A DNA stretch of 64,000 nucleotides from Candidatus Aenigmatarchaeota archaeon (lineage in GTDB: Archaea; Aenigmatarchaeota; Aenigmatarchaeia; CG10238-14; SCSR01), in assembly GCA_016177025.1 (NCBI GenBank), contig JACOWB010000008.1, positions 14,076-78,075 on the forward strand, given 5' to 3'. The translations under genes were made by a program, and so were the position numbers. The first letter of the stretch is position 1. Each line of letters opens with the position of its first letter. The notes under the pieces were generated by a model, which ran no database searches, was not told the DNA's origin, and was given only the letters and a program-made list of their open reading frames with translations. Shown here piece by piece: positions 3,840 through 56,920 of this stretch.

Positions 3840-4574
3840 GTGAAAACGATTAAAGTAAGTTTCGATGTCTCCAAATCAACGGTTGCTTTGCTTGTGTTCG
3901 CACTAGGCATAGGATACTTATTAGGAAATGTATTCGGAGTGTCCAGTTTTACAGGAAAGACTACTGAAATTACAGCTATAACTCAGACACAGCCTACGCA
4001 ACAGCAACAACCGTCAAAAGTTCAAGTATCGATTGATGATGATCCTTCAATGGGCGAAAAGGATGCCAAAGTTATAGTTATAGAATTTTCTGATTTCCAA
4101 TGTCCGTTCTGTAGAAGATCCTACACAGATACAATATCTCAACTGAAGAAGGATTATATTGATACAGGGAAGGTGCTTTTTGTATACAGAGATTTCCCAT
4201 TAAGCTCCATACATCCTAGCGCATCATCTGCTGCCATGGCTGCCAACTGTGCGAATGAACAAGGCAAGTTCTGGGAAATGCACAACAAAATATTTGATGA
4301 ACAAAACAAGCAAGGGCAGGGAACAGTACAATTTTCTAGTGATGACTTGAAGAAATGGGCCGATGAGATTGGTTTAGACACTGATAAATTCAATTCTTGC
4401 TTAGACTCACAAAAATACAAAGATGAAGTTGATAAAGACTTTCAAGACGGTGTAACAGCTGGCGTCACAGGGACTCCGACATTCTATATAGGGAATCCAA
4501 AAGACGGATATACAGAAATCGTAGGTGCTCAACCGTATTCTGTTATCAGGCAAGTGATAGATTCAATGCTTTAA
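3840..4574 (+). CDS. DsbA-like thiol:disulfide oxidoreductase (thioredoxin fold), N-terminal signal anchor
   Basis: FQCPFCRR CxxC active site in DsbA-like context; hydrophobic N-terminal segment; GTG start. Confidence 0.7.
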   Translation: MKTIKVSFDVSKSTVALLVFALGIGYLLGNVFGVSSFTGKTTEITAITQTQPTQQQQPSKVQVSIDDDPSMGEKDAKVIVIEFSDFQCPFCRRSYTDTISQLKKDYIDTGKVLFVYRDFPLSSIHPSASSAAMAANCANEQGKFWEMHNKIFDEQNKQGQGTVQFSSDDLKKWADEIGLDTDKFNSCLDSQKYKDEVDKDFQDGVTAGVTGTPTFYIGNPKDGYTEIVGAQPYSVIRQVIDSML

Positions 4575-26312: not shown

Positions 26313-27623
26313 ATGGGACCAAAGTTCATTTGCAGAAAGCCAGGCCCTAAATCTGTTGAGATTCTTGAGAGGGACAGGAAAGTCATTTCGCCTTCCCTGA
26401 CTAGGGAGTATTCGTTTGTTTTCAAGAAGGCTAAAGGTTGTCATGTCTGGGATGTTGACGGGAGGAAATACCTAGATTTCTCTGCGGGTGTGGCGGTAAT
26501 GAATATAGGCCACACAAATCCAGTGATTGAAAAGGCTATCCATCAGCAGGCAAAGAATGCTATTCATGCTGGGTTTTCTGATTTTTATGCCGAACTGCCT
26601 GTGAAATTTGTCGAATATCTTTTGACATTTTTGCCTAAACATTTGAACAAAGCATTCCTCTCAAATTCAGGAACAGAATCTGTAGAAGCTGCATACAAAC
26701 TTGCTAGATGGCATACGAATAAAAAATGGGTTATTGCTTTCAAACCATCATTTCATGGAAGAACCATGGCGAGTTTGTCTTTAACAAACGCGAAACCTGT
26801 ACAAAAAGAGAGATTTTATCCTTTTCTGCCTGTTAAGCACGCTTTGTATCCTTATTGTTACCGTTGCCCTTTCAAAAACAAAGAACATGATGCTTGCACG
26901 AATTTGTATCTAGATGTCCTGGAGCAAAAAATATCTGAATGCGATAAGGATTTGGCTGCTATATTTTTAGAACCGATAGCTGGCGAAGGTGGATATATTG
27001 TCCCGCCGAAAGATTTTGTTCAAGGTGTGAAAGAATTATGCGACAAGTATGATATATTATTATGTGATGATGAAGTACAGTCTGGATGTTATAGAACAGG
27101 GGAATTTCTTGCGATAGAAAATTTTGACGTAAAGCCTGACATTGTCTCACTCAGCAAAGCTATAGGCGGCGGTATTCCTTTGGGCGCTACTGTCGCTAAT
27201 GAGAAGATAATGGATTGGTTGCCTGGAAGCCATGCAAACACATTTGGCGGAAATCTTTTGGCTTGTTCTGCAGGAATATCCACATTGAAATTTATGCGGG
27301 AGAAGAAGCTGGGACAAAACGCGACAAAGATTGGAAATTACATGATGAGGAGATTGTATGAAATGAAAGAGCGATATGAGCTTATCGGTGATGTTAGAGG
27401 AATAGGATTAATGATTGGTGTTGAGATTGTGAAGGATAAAAAAACGAAAGAATATGGAGTGAAAGAAAGGACAGATATTTTGTGCAAAGCTAGTGAGAAA
27501 GGATTGCTGCTGTTACCTGCTGGTATAAGCTCGATAAGAATCTGCCCGCCGTTAATTCTAACTAAAAAACAAGCCGATTTGGGTCTGGATATATTTGAGG
27601 ATTCTGTAAAGGAAATTTGTTAA
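26313..27623 (+). CDS. class III PLP-dependent aminotransferase (GabT/ArgD-like)
   Basis: GTESVEAAYKLA, DEVQSG and PLP-Lys motif SLSKAIGGG. Confidence 0.8.
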   Translation: MGPKFICRKPGPKSVEILERDRKVISPSLTREYSFVFKKAKGCHVWDVDGRKYLDFSAGVAVMNIGHTNPVIEKAIHQQAKNAIHAGFSDFYAELPVKFVEYLLTFLPKHLNKAFLSNSGTESVEAAYKLARWHTNKKWVIAFKPSFHGRTMASLSLTNAKPVQKERFYPFLPVKHALYPYCYRCPFKNKEHDACTNLYLDVLEQKISECDKDLAAIFLEPIAGEGGYIVPPKDFVQGVKELCDKYDILLCDDEVQSGCYRTGEFLAIENFDVKPDIVSLSKAIGGGIPLGATVANEKIMDWLPGSHANTFGGNLLACSAGISTLKFMREKKLGQNATKIGNYMMRRLYEMKERYELIGDVRGIGLMIGVEIVKDKKTKEYGVKERTDILCKASEKGLLLLPAGISSIRICPPLILTKKQADLGLDIFEDSVKEIC

Positions 27624-28621
27624 TTATGGCAAAAGGAATTTCAACTGTTATCGCATCTATCTTAATGTTAATGATTGTTGTTGCTTTAGGAGGGACATCT
27701 TATCTCTATATATCAGGAACATTTGCAAGCAAGACTTCCACCGCATTTTCTACACTTGATTCAATTGGTAGTAAGGTTACGATTAGAAATGATGGTACTG
27801 GACAGATAAATGAAATTACAGCTACATTAGACGGACAATCTGTAAATTTGAAAATTATACCAAGTGTTGTTCAAGGAGGACAAGTTGCAGAAGTTATACC
27901 GTTGACATCCCAGACATTATCTGCAGGCACACATATTTTGCGATTGTGCGCATCAAACATGTGCAATACAGCATATCTGACTATTCTAAGTGCTGGAACT
28001 GGCAAAAGTTGTCTCGAGATTTTGAACAATGGGGGTTCTGTAGGTGATGGTTTATACACTATAAATCCTGACGGCTCTTCTAACATTCAGGCTTATTGTG
28101 ACATGTCTACCGATGAGGGAGGATGGACTTTGGTTGTAAGGGCTTTGGCAGGAAGCCAAGTCCATAATACTGGGGGCGGTCTCGGCACTTTGTCAAGCCC
28201 TACACAAGGCACAGTTGCTAAATTGAGCAATGCTATGATAATCAATATTGGAAAATCTGTTAATCCTGTTTATGAAACTAGAGTTTTATTTGATTCATTT
28301 GCTGATAGATATTATCATCAATGGAACAACGGCTATGCTGCTGATTTCAACAACTTTAAACCTGTTCTTGGGGATCCAGCCGAACAGACACGAAAGAATA
28401 GCTATGTCGGGTCATGGATCAACGAAGCGGTGGCTTATTCAAGTGGCTGCAGTGGTGGGTATGCGCCGTTTTCAGCAAACGGACAGTGCAGTACTATTTG
28501 GGCATATATCGGATGCTCCCCTGGATTCGGCCACTCGGGATTCGGAATATCTGCGAGCTGTGCAGTGTCATACCCCCCAGAGAGTTTATACCATAGATTC
28601 GGAACTATGTGGGTGAGGTAG
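27617..28621 (+). CDS. archaeal type IV pilin-like protein (class III signal peptide) with C-terminal fibrinogen-related (FReD-like) domain
   Basis: MAKGISTVIASILMLMIVVALGG prepilin-like N-terminus. GDGLYTINPDGSSNIQAYCDMSTDEGGWTLVVR closely resembles the fibrinogen C-domain core (VYCDM.TDGGGWTV). Confidence 0.55.
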   Translation: MLIMAKGISTVIASILMLMIVVALGGTSYLYISGTFASKTSTAFSTLDSIGSKVTIRNDGTGQINEITATLDGQSVNLKIIPSVVQGGQVAEVIPLTSQTLSAGTHILRLCASNMCNTAYLTILSAGTGKSCLEILNNGGSVGDGLYTINPDGSSNIQAYCDMSTDEGGWTLVVRALAGSQVHNTGGGLGTLSSPTQGTVAKLSNAMIINIGKSVNPVYETRVLFDSFADRYYHQWNNGYAADFNNFKPVLGDPAEQTRKNSYVGSWINEAVAYSSGCSGGYAPFSANGQCSTIWAYIGCSPGFGHSGFGISASCAVSYPPESLYHRFGTMWVR

Positions 28622-49808: not shown

Positions 49809-50752
49809 TCACTGAATTGCCAGAATAGCCGTATTGCACATGCTGGATGTGCACAACCTTAGGGTGTGTGTTCCTCTTGATAATTGGTTGTATATCTTCA
49901 TTGTTGCTATTTCGCCGGGATTTATTTGCGAGCCTATGTCGTATTCAGCTTTTATTTCTTGTGCTGACAAGGCACGATTATAAATTTTAACTTCATCTAT
50001 CATACCGCTGAAGAATGGTGCTTGCCGATTGCCGCCTATATTAAGTGGGCGTGCTTCATTGGCTATATCACCGGAGGAAAACCAACTTGCTGAGGCCTTT
50101 TGTACGCCACCGACGTAAACCTTGAAGTAGTTGCCTAACTTGGAACCTGTGCAAACGACATGATACCATTGGCCTGTGTTATACTGTGTAGGATCTGTGA
50201 CATATACATAGATTCCTGGAGAGGAGCTTGCAAACTCTCCCATGTATCACTATTTGTTTTTATCCATGTCTCAATGGTGATTTCCTGTGTTATGCCCAAA
50301 GAAGCAGAATGCGGTACTTGTATGTATCCTCCGTTTGATGTGAATCCTGCACCATTTCCGAAATAGCCTGAAGCTGGACTGCCATAGTCAGCTCCGCCTG
50401 TACATGATTTTCCGTTATTATTTTTATCGGAAGAATCTTTTATCGAGTTTGTTGTGCAATCGTTTGTCCAAGAGCTTTCGTCCATCTTCCAATAACCTAC
50501 AAGCGAGGAATCCTGCTTGGATACACGATAAACAGCGTCGTTACCATCTATTTTAACAGACGAAAAGGCATCTATCGGTTCCGTCCCATCATTTCTTATA
50601 ATTACAGTATCGTTTACAGAGTCTACTAATGAAAATGTTGTTGATGTCTTGCCGGTGAATAACCCAGAGACATATAAGTAAGCCGTCCCTGCCAAAGCAA
50701 TCGTGATCGTCAGCATCAGAATAGACGCTATAATAGTAGAAATCGCCTTCAT
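49809..50752 (-). CDS. archaeal pilin-like protein with LamG/concanavalin-A-like lectin domain; two overlapping frames (apparent frameshift near 50225)
   Basis: N-terminus MKAISTIIASILMLTITIALAG; ...ITIETWIKTNSDTW then +1 frame continues ...QWYHVVCTGSKLGNYFKVYVGG...IDEVKIYNRALSAQEI (LamG). C-terminus shares GTHTLRLCTSSMCNTA with 27617-28621. Confidence 0.5.
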
Positions 50753-53313: not shown

Positions 53314-54917
53314 ACTTTATAAGCATGAGCTGTAAATCAGTATCTGATGACATGTCTATAGTGCCGAACAAAGAGAACAAGAATATTGAATTCAAGGAGA
53401 AGCTGAGTAGTGCAACTCATCTGAAACAGGATAAAAAACAGCACCTTGCTTCCCAAATGAAATACCTGTTGGAAATTGGCAGGGGTACTGCTGTATACGT
53501 GATTGGCGTTGACGACGACGGCAAGACAAAGGGGTTAACCGAATTGGAATTTGAAGAGACGTTGAATGTTCTGAAAGTTGTGGCATCAGAAAATAATGCT
53601 AATGTTGCCAAAATTGAGAAATTCGCTGATAATGGAAATCTCCTTGGAAAGATTGTGATTAACAAAGCTTATACAAACGGGTTCAAATCGCACATAGTCA
53701 TTGCAAGCAGCGGCCATGTAAACCACGGCAAATCTACATTAATAGGAACTTTGATGACTGGAAAGCAGGACACCGAGTTGAAGAATTGGTTGTTTCTTGA
53801 CACTTTACCGCATGAAATTGAAAGAAACCTGTCTGCTGATTTGCATTACGCACTGTTGGGATTCAAGGACAACAAACCTCTGCATTTGAAAAATCCTTTG
53901 GACAAAAAAGAAAGAAGCAGAGTTGTCGAGCAATCCGACAAGATGATCAGTTTTGTCGATGCGCCTGGACATGAAGGATTCCTCAGGACAGCAATTCGTG
54001 GAGTAGTCGGACAAGATATTGATTACGGGATGTTAGTAGTAGCCGCTGACGATGGTGTGATGAATATGACCAAGGAACACCTTGGGCTGTTGCTAGCGGT
54101 AAATCTGCCTGTAATAGTTTGCATTACAAAAGTTGACAAAATCGGTAAAAGAAAAATTGAAGAAACAGAATTACAAATGGAGGAATTATTAAAACATGTC
54201 GGTAGGGTTCCTTACTTGGTAAAGGACGAGAATGACTTGAACGTTGTTATTGACAAGCTTGACACAATCGTTCCGATAATAAGAACTTCCGCAGTAACCT
54301 TGGAAGGGTATGATATTTTGAATAAGACTTTGTTAGCATTGCCAGAAAGGAGAAGAAATCTTGACAAACCTTTCCTGATGTTCATCGACAAGATATACAA
54401 TGTATCTGGTGTTGGGACTGTAATCTCTGGGACCATCAAGCAGGGAAGGCTGCAGGCTGGAAGTGAATTGTTGTTAGGACCAGATGCGACAGGAAAGATG
54501 AAGAAAGTCAAAGCTCCTAGTATTGAAATGCATTACCATAGGCTGGCAGAGGCTGACACAGGATTTGTAGTTGGAGTTGCATTGAGAGGAGTGAATTATG
54601 ATGACGTTAAGAGAGGAATGATACTTTGCTCGCCGGAATTAAGCCCGAGCCCTGCGAAGAATTTCGAGGCCGAAGTTCTGATTCTTACGCATCCGACAAG
54701 GATAACAAATGGATACGAGCCGGTAATTCACTTGTTTACAGTAGGTGAATCTGCTAAGGTCGAATTAATTGACAAGGAATATTTGAAATCTGGGGAAAAT
54801 GGGAAAATTAGATTTGCTTTCAAGTATTCGCCACATTATCTGGAAGAAGGGGACAGATTCATTTTCAGGGAAGGCAAGACTAAAGGAATCGGGACTATAA
54901 CCAAGATTTTAAATTAA
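53310..54917 (+). CDS. EF-Tu/EF-1A-family translational GTPase paralog with N-terminal extension (GTPBP1-like)
   Basis: G1 GHVNHGKST, G3 DAPGHEGF, G4 TKVD; beta-barrel domains II/III; ~130-aa N-terminal extension. Confidence 0.6.
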   Translation: MNFISMSCKSVSDDMSIVPNKENKNIEFKEKLSSATHLKQDKKQHLASQMKYLLEIGRGTAVYVIGVDDDGKTKGLTELEFEETLNVLKVVASENNANVAKIEKFADNGNLLGKIVINKAYTNGFKSHIVIASSGHVNHGKSTLIGTLMTGKQDTELKNWLFLDTLPHEIERNLSADLHYALLGFKDNKPLHLKNPLDKKERSRVVEQSDKMISFVDAPGHEGFLRTAIRGVVGQDIDYGMLVVAADDGVMNMTKEHLGLLLAVNLPVIVCITKVDKIGKRKIEETELQMEELLKHVGRVPYLVKDENDLNVVIDKLDTIVPIIRTSAVTLEGYDILNKTLLALPERRRNLDKPFLMFIDKIYNVSGVGTVISGTIKQGRLQAGSELLLGPDATGKMKKVKAPSIEMHYHRLAEADTGFVVGVALRGVNYDDVKRGMILCSPELSPSPAKNFEAEVLILTHPTRITNGYEPVIHLFTVGESAKVELIDKEYLKSGENGKIRFAFKYSPHYLEEGDRFIFREGKTKGIGTITKILN

Positions 54918-55330
54918 ATGCAAAAAACGACTCCCGATGCAGATGATCCCCCAGCGGAGACTATAATGTTATTGTTACCGTCAGATCCTGTTACTGTATT
55001 GTCACATGTTGCTCTGCCGCCGGCAGCTAAGGTTCCTGTAGCCGAACATGAAACAGACGGGATAACGCCTCCTGTGGAGTTCGCCCCTGTTATTATGACT
55101 GATGACAATGGCAACGATGATGTCCCTGAATTTCTAACTCCAATTGTTATCACATCGGTAGTTGCATCACATTGGGTGATACTTGCGTCTACCTCCAGTA
55201 TAACTGCTATCCTTTGTGTAGTTGTTCCTGAAATAAAAGTGTATGCCAGTCCTCCCAGTGCCAGAACAATGACGAGAATCATCAAAGTGGCTATTATGGT
55301 AGATACACCTTTCATAAAATAATATTGCAT
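54914..55330 (-). CDS. archaeal type IV pilin-like protein (class III signal peptide)
   Basis: MKGVSTIIATLMILVIVLALGG N-terminus; Ser/Thr/Gly-rich body with 4 Cys. Confidence 0.55.
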   Translation of the reverse strand: MQYYFMKGVSTIIATLMILVIVLALGGLAYTFISGTTTQRIAVILEVDASITQCDATTDVITIGVRNSGTSSLPLSSVIITGANSTGGVIPSVSCSATGTLAAGGRATCDNTVTGSDGNNNIIVSAGGSSASGVVFCI

Positions 55331-55381: not shown

Positions 55382-56692
55382 CTAACCCACAACCGCAGTC
55401 CCACCCGCATGGTGGCTGACTCTTGGACGTATATTGACCGTGAATATCTTTTCCAAGTTATCATCGAGAATTACGGCTGACCCTGGCGTGCGTGGCAATC
55501 TGTTTAGATACTTCTCCAATTCCTCTTGGACATAAGTCTGCATCACTGCGTGAAGAGATTCCAAGTCATCCCGGCTTGTCAATCTAAAAGATATCACAGT
55601 GTCTGTTTGGGATATCACATCCTGGTGGACTTTAGCAGGCATCTGGGTTATGCAAATCAGTCCTACCCCAGGTTCTCTTCCCTCCTTCGCTATTCGTTTG
55701 ATATCTGCGCTTGAACTGACATCCTTGTCATTTGGGATGAAATTGTGGCTCTCCTCAAAAACCAACCACGTCATTGGAAATTTTATATTCTGCCTCTCGC
55801 CCGTGATTTTCGCTACTTCCTCTTCTTTCCTCGACAGAATTCTTTGGTGTAGAATTTCCCTTGTGATTAATCCTGCAACTAATGTCCTTACTTCTTGAGA
55901 CTTCAGTCGCGAAAAATCAAAAACTATCACCTCACCAGGCTTAATTAATTCGCTAACTCTAGTCCCCTCTCTTTTAATTATGCCCCATTGAGACAGCACA
56001 TCCAACAAACTTGTTAGCGCATCTTTAGTTTCCTTTTTTGCTTTTGCATCGCTTGTGATTGAATCGATTAAATCGTCTAAACCGAATGTTTTATCAGCTT
56101 CCAACAGAGAATTGAAATTCTTTTCCAGAGTAACAGCGAATTCACTTGTTCTTTCCAAATTAAATGCGAGGATTAAATCTTCAGCTGTCAAGTCGCTCAA
56201 GGATATACTAATTGTACCGTCAACTGGTATCTCAGCTTTCTCATATTCTTCTAGCTGTTTTTCAGGAACGTAAATCTTTATTTTATCGAATCCTTTCGGT
56301 TCAAGTTCCCAGTTGTTTAATAATTGAATTTGAGTCTCGTTTGGAAATTTCATGCTCCAATAAATACCCACAGGGTCGAAAACGACAAATGCCATCTTCT
56401 GACGGAATCCTTCTGGCAGTGAGAGAAATTCTTCTAAAATCACTGATGCGGAATAAGACTTGCCCGACCCACGTTTACCGGCAACTAGAATTACATGCGG
56501 TTTTAACAAATCGATATATACTTTTGTTGTCAGATGCGCATCTTCACCAGTACCAACTATATGCTTGCCGATATATCCTGTAGCTTTATTGCCGAATTTT
56601 TCATAGTCTTCCTTTGTTCTGCCTACAATGGTTTCAGTGACTATTGAGAATGGTTTCTCTTCTGAAGGCATATATAAAGAATTTAACTTCAA
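55382..56692 (-). CDS. DUF87/HerA-FtsK-like P-loop ATPase
   Basis: Walker A ILVAGKRGSGKS; Walker B VFDF...E; Arg finger region; 436 aa. Confidence 0.6.
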   Translation of the reverse strand: MKLNSLYMPSEEKPFSIVTETIVGRTKEDYEKFGNKATGYIGKHIVGTGEDAHLTTKVYIDLLKPHVILVAGKRGSGKSYSASVILEEFLSLPEGFRQKMAFVVFDPVGIYWSMKFPNETQIQLLNNWELEPKGFDKIKIYVPEKQLEEYEKAEIPVDGTISISLSDLTAEDLILAFNLERTSEFAVTLEKNFNSLLEADKTFGLDDLIDSITSDAKAKKETKDALTSLLDVLSQWGIIKREGTRVSELIKPGEVIVFDFSRLKSQEVRTLVAGLITREILHQRILSRKEEEVAKITGERQNIKFPMTWLVFEESHNFIPNDKDVSSSADIKRIAKEGREPGVGLICITQMPAKVHQDVISQTDTVISFRLTSRDDLESLHAVMQTYVQEELEKYLNRLPRTPGSAVILDDNLEKIFTVNIRPRVSHHAGGTAVVG

Positions 56693-56711
56693 ATCAAATA
56701 TTGTTCTTGTT

Positions 56712-56797
56712 GGGGACTTGGTATAACTTGGTTAGAATTCGACCTTGGGGTTAAGGACAGATTGGTCGCGATCCGAGTTCAAATCTCGGGGTCCCCA
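56712..56797 (+). tRNA. tRNA-Pro (anticodon GGG) with ~12-nt intron at canonical 37/38 position
   Basis: Acceptor GGGGACT/GGTCCCC, T-arm CCGAG-TTCAAAT-CTCGG, anticodon stem CGACC/GGTCG with loop TTGGGG+T; D-arm irregular. Confidence 0.55.
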
Positions 56798-56832
56798 TTA
56801 ATTTTAAAAGCCAAACTGTGTATCATTCTTAG

Positions 56833-56920
56833 GGGGTTGTGGTCTAACTTGGTATGACACCAGCCTTGGGAAGTTACTCAAGAACGCTGGAGGTTCAGGG
56901 TTCAAATCCCTGCGACCCCA
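56833..56920 (+). tRNA. tRNA-Pro (anticodon UGG) with ~14-nt intron after position 37
   Basis: Acceptor GGGGTTG/CGACCCC, T-arm CAGGG-TTCAAAT-CCCTG, anticodon stem CCAGC/GCTGG, loop CTTGGG+intron. Confidence 0.6.

Follow-up and report, generated by a model that had tools for sequence, protein, structure and literature searches.

The 64,000-nucleotide window analyzed here (the whole stretch of DNA under study, from contig JACOWB010000008.1 of a Candidatus Aenigmatarchaeota archaeon) contains on its + strand an open reading frame (ORF) running from a TTG at 27617 to 28621, present both in the ORF list and in the sequence itself. Its product is probably an archaeal type IV pilin of modular build, in which an adhesive module resembling the fibrinogen-related domain (FReD) has been grafted onto the C-terminus of a small but complete pilin, and which would act as an adhesin on a pilus. 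The predicted architecture is that of a modular pilin, with a pilin module (residues 1-120), a short linker (LSAGT) and a FReD-like domain (residues 126-331). An earlier note on this DNA had drawn attention to the peptide GDGLYTINPDGSSNIQAYCDMSTDEGGWTLVVR, which corresponds to residues 140-172 of the product of ORF 27617-28621, and had proposed a class III, pilin-type N-terminus joined to a close mimic of the animal FReD core, forming a surface adhesin or lectin that might have been acquired horizontally.

The pilin module and the extent of the gene

The N-terminal class III signal (MAKG followed by ISTVIASILMLMIVVALGG) was recovered both by a regular-expression scan for class III motifs and by TIGR02537, the model of the archaellin/type IV pilin N-terminal domain, which matches residues 2-33 with E=3.4e-7 and 29.7 bits against a cut-off of 20. 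Cleavage by a prepilin peptidase would fall after Gly4. The bacterial N-methylation motif of IPR012902, in which the glycine is followed by F/M-x-x-x-E, is not found here, as ISTVI follows Gly4 and there is no Glu5. The Pilin_N model (PF07790) did not report the protein, and the near-identical N-termini of its relatives P0007 and P0012 reach 22.9 and 21.8 bits, below the cut-off of 25.2. The profile of the UpsA pilin gives a weak match from end to end (residues 3-120 against positions 2-131 of 136, E=5.5e-5), which lies far under the cut-off, and the protein is thus no UpsA orthologue.

Modeling with AlphaFold2 (AF2) from a 55-sequence alignment predicts a long helix at residues 5-33, a beta-sandwich at residues 41-120 with a predicted local distance difference test score (pLDDT) of about 90, and then a separate globular domain. 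The pilin fold, in which an N-terminal helix lies against a beta-rich globular part, is present in this model, as a prediction. The linker region lacks regular secondary structure in the model, and pLDDT falls to 79 across residues 121-130. A cysteine pair, C108/C113, is conserved in the last hairpin of the module within the motif LRLCxSxMCNTA, and would staple the beta-sandwich through a disulfide. By sequence and model, then, residues 1-120 are predicted to be a complete archaeal pilin module consisting of class III signal, helix and beta-sandwich, and the pilin-type N-terminus proposed in the earlier note is upheld both by the TIGR02537 match and by the modeled fold.

The ATG at 27626 is more likely to be the start codon than the TTG at 27617, and would give a product of 331 residues that begins with MAKG and continues with ISTVIAS. 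Leaders of the same kind and length are found in relatives (MENKGISTVI, MTKAISTVI, and MKGITPVI), the aminotransferase gene upstream ends in a stop codon two bases before this ATG, and the full-length relatives P0004, P0007, P0009, and P0010 keep the N-terminal region in frame. The deposited annotation is different. The closest database entry (P0001, HYS62_01455), a protein of 100% identity from a Candidatus Aenigmarchaeota metagenome-assembled genome (MAG), contains only 220 residues called from an internal Met (MCNTAYL...), leaving out the class III signal and the pilin module. If that record were correct, the gene would encode a signal-less fibrinogen-like protein and the pilin-like N-terminus would be untranslated; a second Aenigmarchaeota record (P0005, from another MAG) is likewise short, at 224 residues. 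We consider this highly improbable and have rejected the 220-residue gene model, because the 111 codons upstream of the internal Met are open and in frame, are conserved in full-length P0007, P0009, and P0010, score as a pilin N-terminus and fold confidently in AF2, and because they share 53-65% identity with the N-terminal region of relatives that carry a LamG domain (see below). Furthermore, the internal Met sits within the conserved LRLCxSxMCNTA beta-hairpin, and a domain with six cysteines would be unlikely in the cytoplasm. The P0005 record may itself be cut at the N-terminus as P0001 is. As deposited, the truncated annotation conceals the pilin part of the protein, and surveys driven by databases will therefore miss the fusion.

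The fibrinogen-like domain and its relatives

The linker is followed by a cysteine-rich C-terminal domain of about 205 residues. Pfam, which the earlier note had named as a check, does recognize a FReD here: residues 126-178 match Fibrinogen_C (PF00147) with E=7.6e-8 and 32.9 bits against a gathering threshold of 22, although only over profile positions 2-54 of 221. The NCBIfam model NF040941 (“GGGWT_bact”) is matched over its entire length (positions 1-46 of 46) by residues 128-170, with E=9.4e-18 and 64 bits against a cut-off of 30. Sequence searches of the PDB returned fibrinogen beta/gamma, angiopoietins, FGL1, tenascins, ficolins, and intelectins, almost all of them matching the A-subdomain stretch only. 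C129 and C158 align with cysteines of fibrinogen beta, and 55 relatives show no variation at C158, D159, M160, G165, G166, W167, and T168. With TIGR02537, NF040941, and PF00147 all scoring above their cut-offs, a chance similarity of motifs was rejected.

How far does the likeness to animal FReDs extend? When the domain family was compared by profile–profile alignment (hhalign) with one canonical archaeal FReD and four canonical prokaryotic FReDs, 47-55 columns could be aligned, none of them past column 59, and demonstrable sequence homology is thus limited to the A subdomain and the first strand of the B subdomain. Residues 179-331 showed no Pfam or profile similarity to canonical FReDs. The AF2 model of the domain alone (pLDDT 90.8, predicted template-modeling score 0.90) has FReDs as all of its best 50 structural matches in the PDB (fibrinogen, FGL1, angiopoietin-1, and tenascin-R/C; E~1e-7, template-modeling (TM) score 0.45-0.52, root-mean-square deviation 7-9 Å). 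The close mimicry of the animal FReD core that had been claimed therefore applies to the A subdomain and first beta-strand, while the remaining ~155 residues are FReD-like at the level of the fold only. The earlier note had itself counted similarity limited to the segment it quoted, together with the lack of a significant FReD match, against its proposal; the similarity is indeed confined nearly to that extent, but the FReD match is significant.

Comparison with known families places the domain more closely. With canonical FReDs (fibrinogen beta/gamma, ficolins, tenascins, angiopoietins, and tachylectin-5A) it shares a two-cysteine A subdomain with YCDM..GGGWT and a predicted fold that retrieves FReDs only, and its end strand (...GTMWVR) stands where canonical prokaryotic FReDs have ...GAIWIR and ...GWIWVR (L075 and L046). 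It differs from canonical FReDs in that similarity of sequence or profile is undetectable beyond ~55 residues, in lacking both the DxDxD Ca2+ site and the C...WWY..C pattern, and in having four additional cysteines in another pattern. Intelectins, or X-type lectins, offer a parallel in that they too share only an N-terminal segment of ~45-50 residues with FReDs; XEEL (E=3.8e-6) and human intelectin-1 (E=1.7e-4) match residues 123-173 only. However, no intelectin is among the best 50 structural matches, and there is no sequence similarity across the region of the Ca2+/diol site. The protein is a clear member of NF040941, and its relative P0007 is already named “fibrinogen-like YCDxxxxGGGW domain-containing protein” in NCBI; this model, however, covers 46 residues and is silent on function and on the pilin fusion, and most of its members bear ordinary bacterial signal peptides. 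Our reading of the sequence and the model is that the domain would belong to the FReD fold superfamily as a divergent member of prokaryotic type, and not as a canonical FReD. A DsbA-like thioredoxin-fold protein is encoded elsewhere in the window (3840-4574, +; PF13462 E=8.5e-35, and PF01323), and fits with the extracytoplasmic disulfide formation on which the cysteine-rich pilin and FReD-like modules would depend.

When one genome was scanned for each prokaryotic species, relatives of the domain turned up at 532 loci at least, the main sources being Myxococcota, Bdellovibrio/Pseudobdellovibrio, Bradymonadia, Auribacterota, Gracilibacteria together with other members of the Candidate Phyla Radiation (CPR), and DPANN archaea (Woese-, Nano-, Pace-, Iain- and Aenigmatarchaeota). 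A profile of the region following GGGWT found 201 representative clusters (E<=1e-3) among 1.84 billion, 94 of them at E<=1e-10; among the 150 matches listed of these 201, at least 114 have CDM..GGW upstream of that region, and most were seen on inspection to carry bacterial-type (Sec-type) signal peptides. A regular expression for signal peptides, applied to the family representatives, was too permissive and caught such Sec signals, and inspection left P0004 and P0008 as the only ones judged to be archaeal pilin-type. The nearest relatives over the full domain are archaeal. Among bacterial proteins, P0016 comes closest to the archaeal clade when the domains are aligned; it is 41% identical over the domain and apparently belongs to Gracilibacteria. 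Both P0016 and P0041, a bacterial pilin fusion described below, have Trp at positions where Gly is conserved (e.g., CDMETDWGGW; VWLLASP vs VGTLSSP), which suggests that they come from Gracilibacteria-type genomes in which UGA encodes Gly (code 25) and that they were translated with the wrong table.

Among viruses, the best structural matches of the domain in BFVD are proteins of T4-like cyanophages (S-ShM2, P-SSM4, P-HM2, and S-CAM8), some of them annotated as fibrinogen C-terminal domain-containing, with one weaker match annotated as tail-fibre-like. This hints that phages may use the FReD-like fold for receptor binding. In Candidatus Iainarchaeum (L074) and Woesearchaeota (L043), FReD-like segments lie inside giant multidomain surface proteins with LamG-like repeats (open frames of 1,940 and 1,119 residues), indicating that the domain is also used on adhesin-like proteins other than pilins.

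This distribution bears on the foreign origin hinted at in the earlier note. An alternative to our reading would be a canonical FReD lectin of animal type, with a ficolin-like sugar pocket, that was recently acquired from a metazoan. The best PDB sequence matches are indeed vertebrate fibrinogen beta chains (E=6e-8), and guanine-plus-cytosine (GC) content is 0.45 in the domain part compared with 0.36 in the pilin part and 0.40 in the window. However, this GC gap is modest, may mirror no more than a Gly/Ala-rich composition, and was judged too weak as evidence of transfer. The sequence similarity to animal proteins spans only ~50 residues, whereas prokaryotic relatives are numerous and have a dedicated NCBIfam model, and the nearest of them over the full domain are archaeal and, in bacteria, apparently gracilibacterial. 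In addition, the profile of the region after GGGWT found 201 representative relatives, a number that should have been much larger had canonical FReDs been detected by it. Since a large prokaryotic family is already catalogued by NCBIfam, transfer from animals is unlikely in general, and a recent one was rejected as having next to no probability. Transfer of the domain among prokaryotes, including between domains of life, is plausible.

Recurrence, genomic context and function

The fusion of a FReD-like domain to a pilin is not confined to this protein. Archaeal pilin N-termini are found on the full-length relatives P0004, P0006, P0007, P0008, P0009, and P0010. L075, from another Aenigmatarchaeota MAG, combines a pilin N-terminus with a full canonical FReD (PF00147 positions 2-194 of 221, E=9e-14) that contains TTYDADHDVNSGNCATYYGNTAWWYGSC, and L079 from Pacearchaeota has the same architecture. 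Bacterial type IV pilins with FTLVE or FTIVE after the glycine of the cleavage site (P0041, P0061, and P0160) carry the same kind of domain. By sequence, the fusion appears to recur independently. Two further proteins, P0002 and P0003, are 70% identical to ours in the domain and have a different N-terminus, ..KKSQAALEFLTTY.. (..KKSQAALEFLTTYxWAF..), followed by a cysteine-containing domain. On inspection, and with no Pfam match, this N-terminus looks like an archaeal class III signal of the QxxxEF type; if that holds, it would imply that the FReD-like head moves between pilin scaffolds.

The scaffold, in turn, carries more than one kind of head. Many LamG proteins of Aenigmarchaeota match our protein at 55-69% identity over about one quarter of its length. 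A first multiple alignment that included them misplaced the C-terminal hairpin that they share with it, and pairwise BLASTP resolved its placement: residues 1-80 are 58% identical to the first 80 residues of P0014, and residues 81-121 are 56% identical to its last 40, with ~200 residues of LamG (PF13385) in between. The LamG domain was identified in the relative P0012 (PF13385, E=1e-26). Thus, the very same pilin scaffold, 53-58% identical by pairwise BLASTP between our protein and its LamG-carrying relatives, has LamG inserted within the sandwich, between scaffold residues ~80 and ~81, whereas the FReD-like domain is appended after it. The window contains one such LamG paralogue (Table 1), which is split by a +1 frameshift just upstream of 50243, around ...gatacatgggagag..., and which, when reconstructed, aligns to the scaffold as P0014 does. 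The frameshift may reflect a pseudogene, an error of MAG assembly or, conceivably, phase variation. LamG proteins are expanded in DPANN archaea, in some cases with links to type IV pili loci (PMC5498576); the LamG surface proteins described near such loci in Mia14/ARMAN (PMC5498576) resemble ours in organism group and in their presumed role in host interaction. The window also encodes a stand-alone 133-residue pilin-like protein, which had no Pfam match at E<=0.01 and is a candidate for the ordinary pilin of the organism. Its ORF lies directly downstream of a gene for an ATPase of the HerA/DUF87 type (55382-56692, -; PF01935 E=1.5e-19).

Bacterial modular pilins provide the closest precedent for how the protein might work. 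PilB (with vWA) and PilC (with a ConA-like lectin) of S. sanguinis are adhesins modeled at the pilus tip (PMC8179133; PMC9934059), and our protein is built like them, with a class III signal ahead of a small pilin module and a bulky graft joined to it by a short linker. Lectin-type grafts of the PF13385/LamG kind are among the commonest architectures of bacterial modular pilins, and bacterial fusions of a pilin with a FReD-like domain exist, as noted above. The differences are that the pilin module is archaeal (K-G/I-S-T-V; TIGR02537 and not IPR012902), that the grafted module is FReD-like, and that adhesion, demonstrated for PilB and PilC, is a prediction for our protein. By analogy, the preprotein would be inserted into the membrane, MAKG would be removed by a prepilin peptidase of the PibD/FlaK/EppA type, and the helix would let the type IV filament machinery (an ATPase and a split platform protein) incorporate the subunit. 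Given the bulk of its domain, it would most likely be a minor subunit located at the tip. The FReD-like head, held ~120 residues out, could then attach to a substrate, a host or a partner cell by way of a surface ligand, which would probably be a glycan or some acetylated group, and binding specificity would be diversified by placing different lectin-type modules on one scaffold, FReD-like when appended and LamG when inserted, as in the paralogue. Aenigmarchaeota are DPANN archaea with probable episymbiotic lifestyles. Predatory bacteria, CPR bacteria, and DPANN archaea, in which the family is concentrated, and cyanophages, which encode FReD-like folds, all attach to other cells, and we count this in favor of an adhesin.

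Several observations weigh against this reading. Past the first ~55 residues, the kinship of the domain with FReDs would rest on predicted structure at a TM score of ~0.5, and the other four AF2 models of the domain are far less confident (pLDDT 66-78). The Ca2+/ligand motif of the P subdomain (DxDxD...C...WWY..C), which the canonical prokaryotic FReDs L046, L065, L069, and L075 (Pfam positions ~2-200) and other DPANN fusions of a pilin with a FReD keep, was not found by regular expression in the protein or in any of its close relatives, and no ligand-binding residues can be mapped in the domain. Of the structural features to which the earlier note had pointed, the cysteine pair C129/C158 is conserved, but a ficolin-type sugar pocket cannot be claimed. 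The gene stands alone among housekeeping genes, and Pfam scans of the 40 larger ORFs of the window found no T2SSE ATPase, T2SSF platform protein or A24 peptidase. Finally, archaeal class III signals also occur on surface proteins that form no filaments, such as the sugar-binding proteins of the Sulfolobus bindosome (PMC4858521; bioRxiv 10.64898/2026.04.22.720090), and the signal alone is thus no proof of incorporation into a filament.

The last of these points leads to the main rival explanation, which we regard as possible but somewhat unlikely: the protein could bind its ligand at the cell surface, as a lectin or otherwise, without belonging to an extended pilus, and its class III signal and helix would serve only to export it and to anchor it in the membrane or a pseudopilus, in the manner of the Sulfolobus bindosome. 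Class III signals on archaeal substrate-binding proteins that are not pilins are established (Szabo 2007, as cited in PMC9934059), and the isolated position of the gene and the absence of machinery among the window ORFs scanned would fit this explanation. Against it, the first 120 residues make up a complete pilin-sized helix and beta-sandwich with weak end-to-end similarity to UpsA, and stand-alone pilin genes at a distance from the machinery are common in archaea (PMC4858521). Moreover, the close relative P0007 (48% identical) lies, in three MAGs, ~2.8 kb from pilin-like ORFs (MNSKAVSTVIAAALIV...), a 790-residue T2SSE ATPase, and two T2SSF genes; all that separates it from this filament cluster is a thermosome gene and a small ORF whose N-terminus is not of pilin type. 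The “system 1” filament machinery reported for methanogens and DPANN archaea has a split platform protein as its hallmark (bioRxiv 10.64898/2026.04.22.720090).

A second possibility is that the protein belongs to a pilus but is not primarily adhesive, serving instead as a bulky cap or initiator subunit, or as a module for protein binding or self-aggregation. Tip complexes in bacteria present effectors and also prime the assembly of the filament (PMC9934059), animal FReDs (fibrinogen, angiopoietin, and tenascin) bind peptides and proteins too, and the domain offers no identifiable sugar-binding residues. The LamG/ConA-like paralogues on the same scaffold, however, argue for interchangeable ligand-recognition heads over a fixed role in assembly, and we consider this possibility improbable. 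The surface adhesin or lectin on a pilus-like scaffold that the earlier note envisaged is, as a prediction, still the best reading.

The immediate neighbors of the gene encode a CobW-like GTPase, MarC, an M42 peptidase, a class III aminotransferase (directly upstream), MgtC, thioredoxin, and thioredoxin reductase. Elsewhere in the window, ARAGORN reported two tRNA-like genes of 88 nucleotides with undetermined anticodons (56711-56798 and 56833-56920, +), of which the second alone is confirmed as a tRNA by Rfam (57 bits). The two may be archaeal tRNAs that contain introns, the first perhaps a degenerate copy.

Table 1. Coordinates within the window of the modular pilin-like gene, its predicted parts, and other pilin-like ORFs
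Feature	Position	Strand	Description and basis
Whole coding sequence of the modular pilin-like protein	27626..28621	+	331 residues plus stop; alternative TTG start at 27617; ORF list, sequence, relatives
Leader MAKG, residues 1-4	27626..27637	+	Positively charged; predicted prepilin-peptidase site after Gly4; K-G plus hydrophobic stretch, TIGR02537, regular expression
Hydrophobic N-terminal alpha-helix, residues 5-33	27638..27724	+	Putative filament-core/membrane-anchor segment; AF2 helix, TIGR02537
Beta-sandwich, residues 40-120	27743..27985	+	AF2 strands 41-120, UpsA profile similarity, identity to LamG relatives
Gly/Ser-rich linker LSAGT, residues 121-125	27986..28000	+	Between pilin module and C-terminal domain
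FReD A subdomain and first beta-strand, residues 126-178	28001..28159	+	SC...GDGLYTI...YCDMSTDEGGWTLV, Cys pair C129/C158; PF00147, NF040941, hhalign
Divergent C-terminal part, residues 179-331	28160..28618	+	VAKLS...YYHQWNNGYAADFNN...GCSGGY...QC...GC...HSGFGI..C...GTMWVR; four further Cys
LamG-carrying paralogue	49809..50752	-	LamG/ConA-like domain within beta-sandwich; two overlapping ORFs, 50752-50135 and 50243-49809; regular-expression scan, translation, pairwise BLASTP; LamG from P0012
Stand-alone class III/pilin-like ORF, 133 residues (MKGVSTIIATLMILVIVLALGG...)	54914..55315	-	Regular expression and translation; N-terminal motif only

Implications for DPANN archaea and for the domain family

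The ingredients of this protein are already known, namely archaeal proteins with class III signals, bacterial modular pilins, LamG proteins of DPANN archaea, and the prokaryotic “GGGWT” domain of NCBIfam. Our literature search brought up no description of a FReD-type domain on an archaeal pilin, and nothing relevant on prokaryotic or archaeal FReDs, on FReDs in Bdellovibrio, or on PF00147 in archaea. A published survey of modular pilins searched for the bacterial-type IPR012902 motif only, its text does not mention archaea, and it could not have found archaeal modular pilins. To our knowledge, the modular pilin concept has been established experimentally in bacteria only, and almost nothing is known of how DPANN archaea recognize and hold their hosts.

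A broader and more speculative proposal, which we think doubtful as a whole, is that the FReD-like domain is an ancient, horizontally mobile cell-recognition head spread across DPANN archaea, CPR/Gracilibacteria, predatory Myxococcota and Bdellovibrio, and cyanophages. It would have been joined to archaeal and bacterial pilins in separate events within the DPANN and CPR lineages, swaps of heads on one scaffold (FReD-like, canonical FReD, and LamG) would set host range, and the metazoan FReD might even derive from this prokaryotic pool.

FReDs are usually regarded as a metazoan domain of innate immunity and clotting. Here they belong to a sizeable, unstudied family of prokaryotes and phages, enriched in organisms that attach to cells. 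The architecture reported here would extend the modular pilin concept to archaea, and it offers recurrent candidates for host-recognition adhesins in DPANN archaea that are not yet culturable by themselves, in the form of a single pilin scaffold with interchangeable heads, FReD-like in this protein, a canonical FReD in a related MAG, and LamG in the paralogues.

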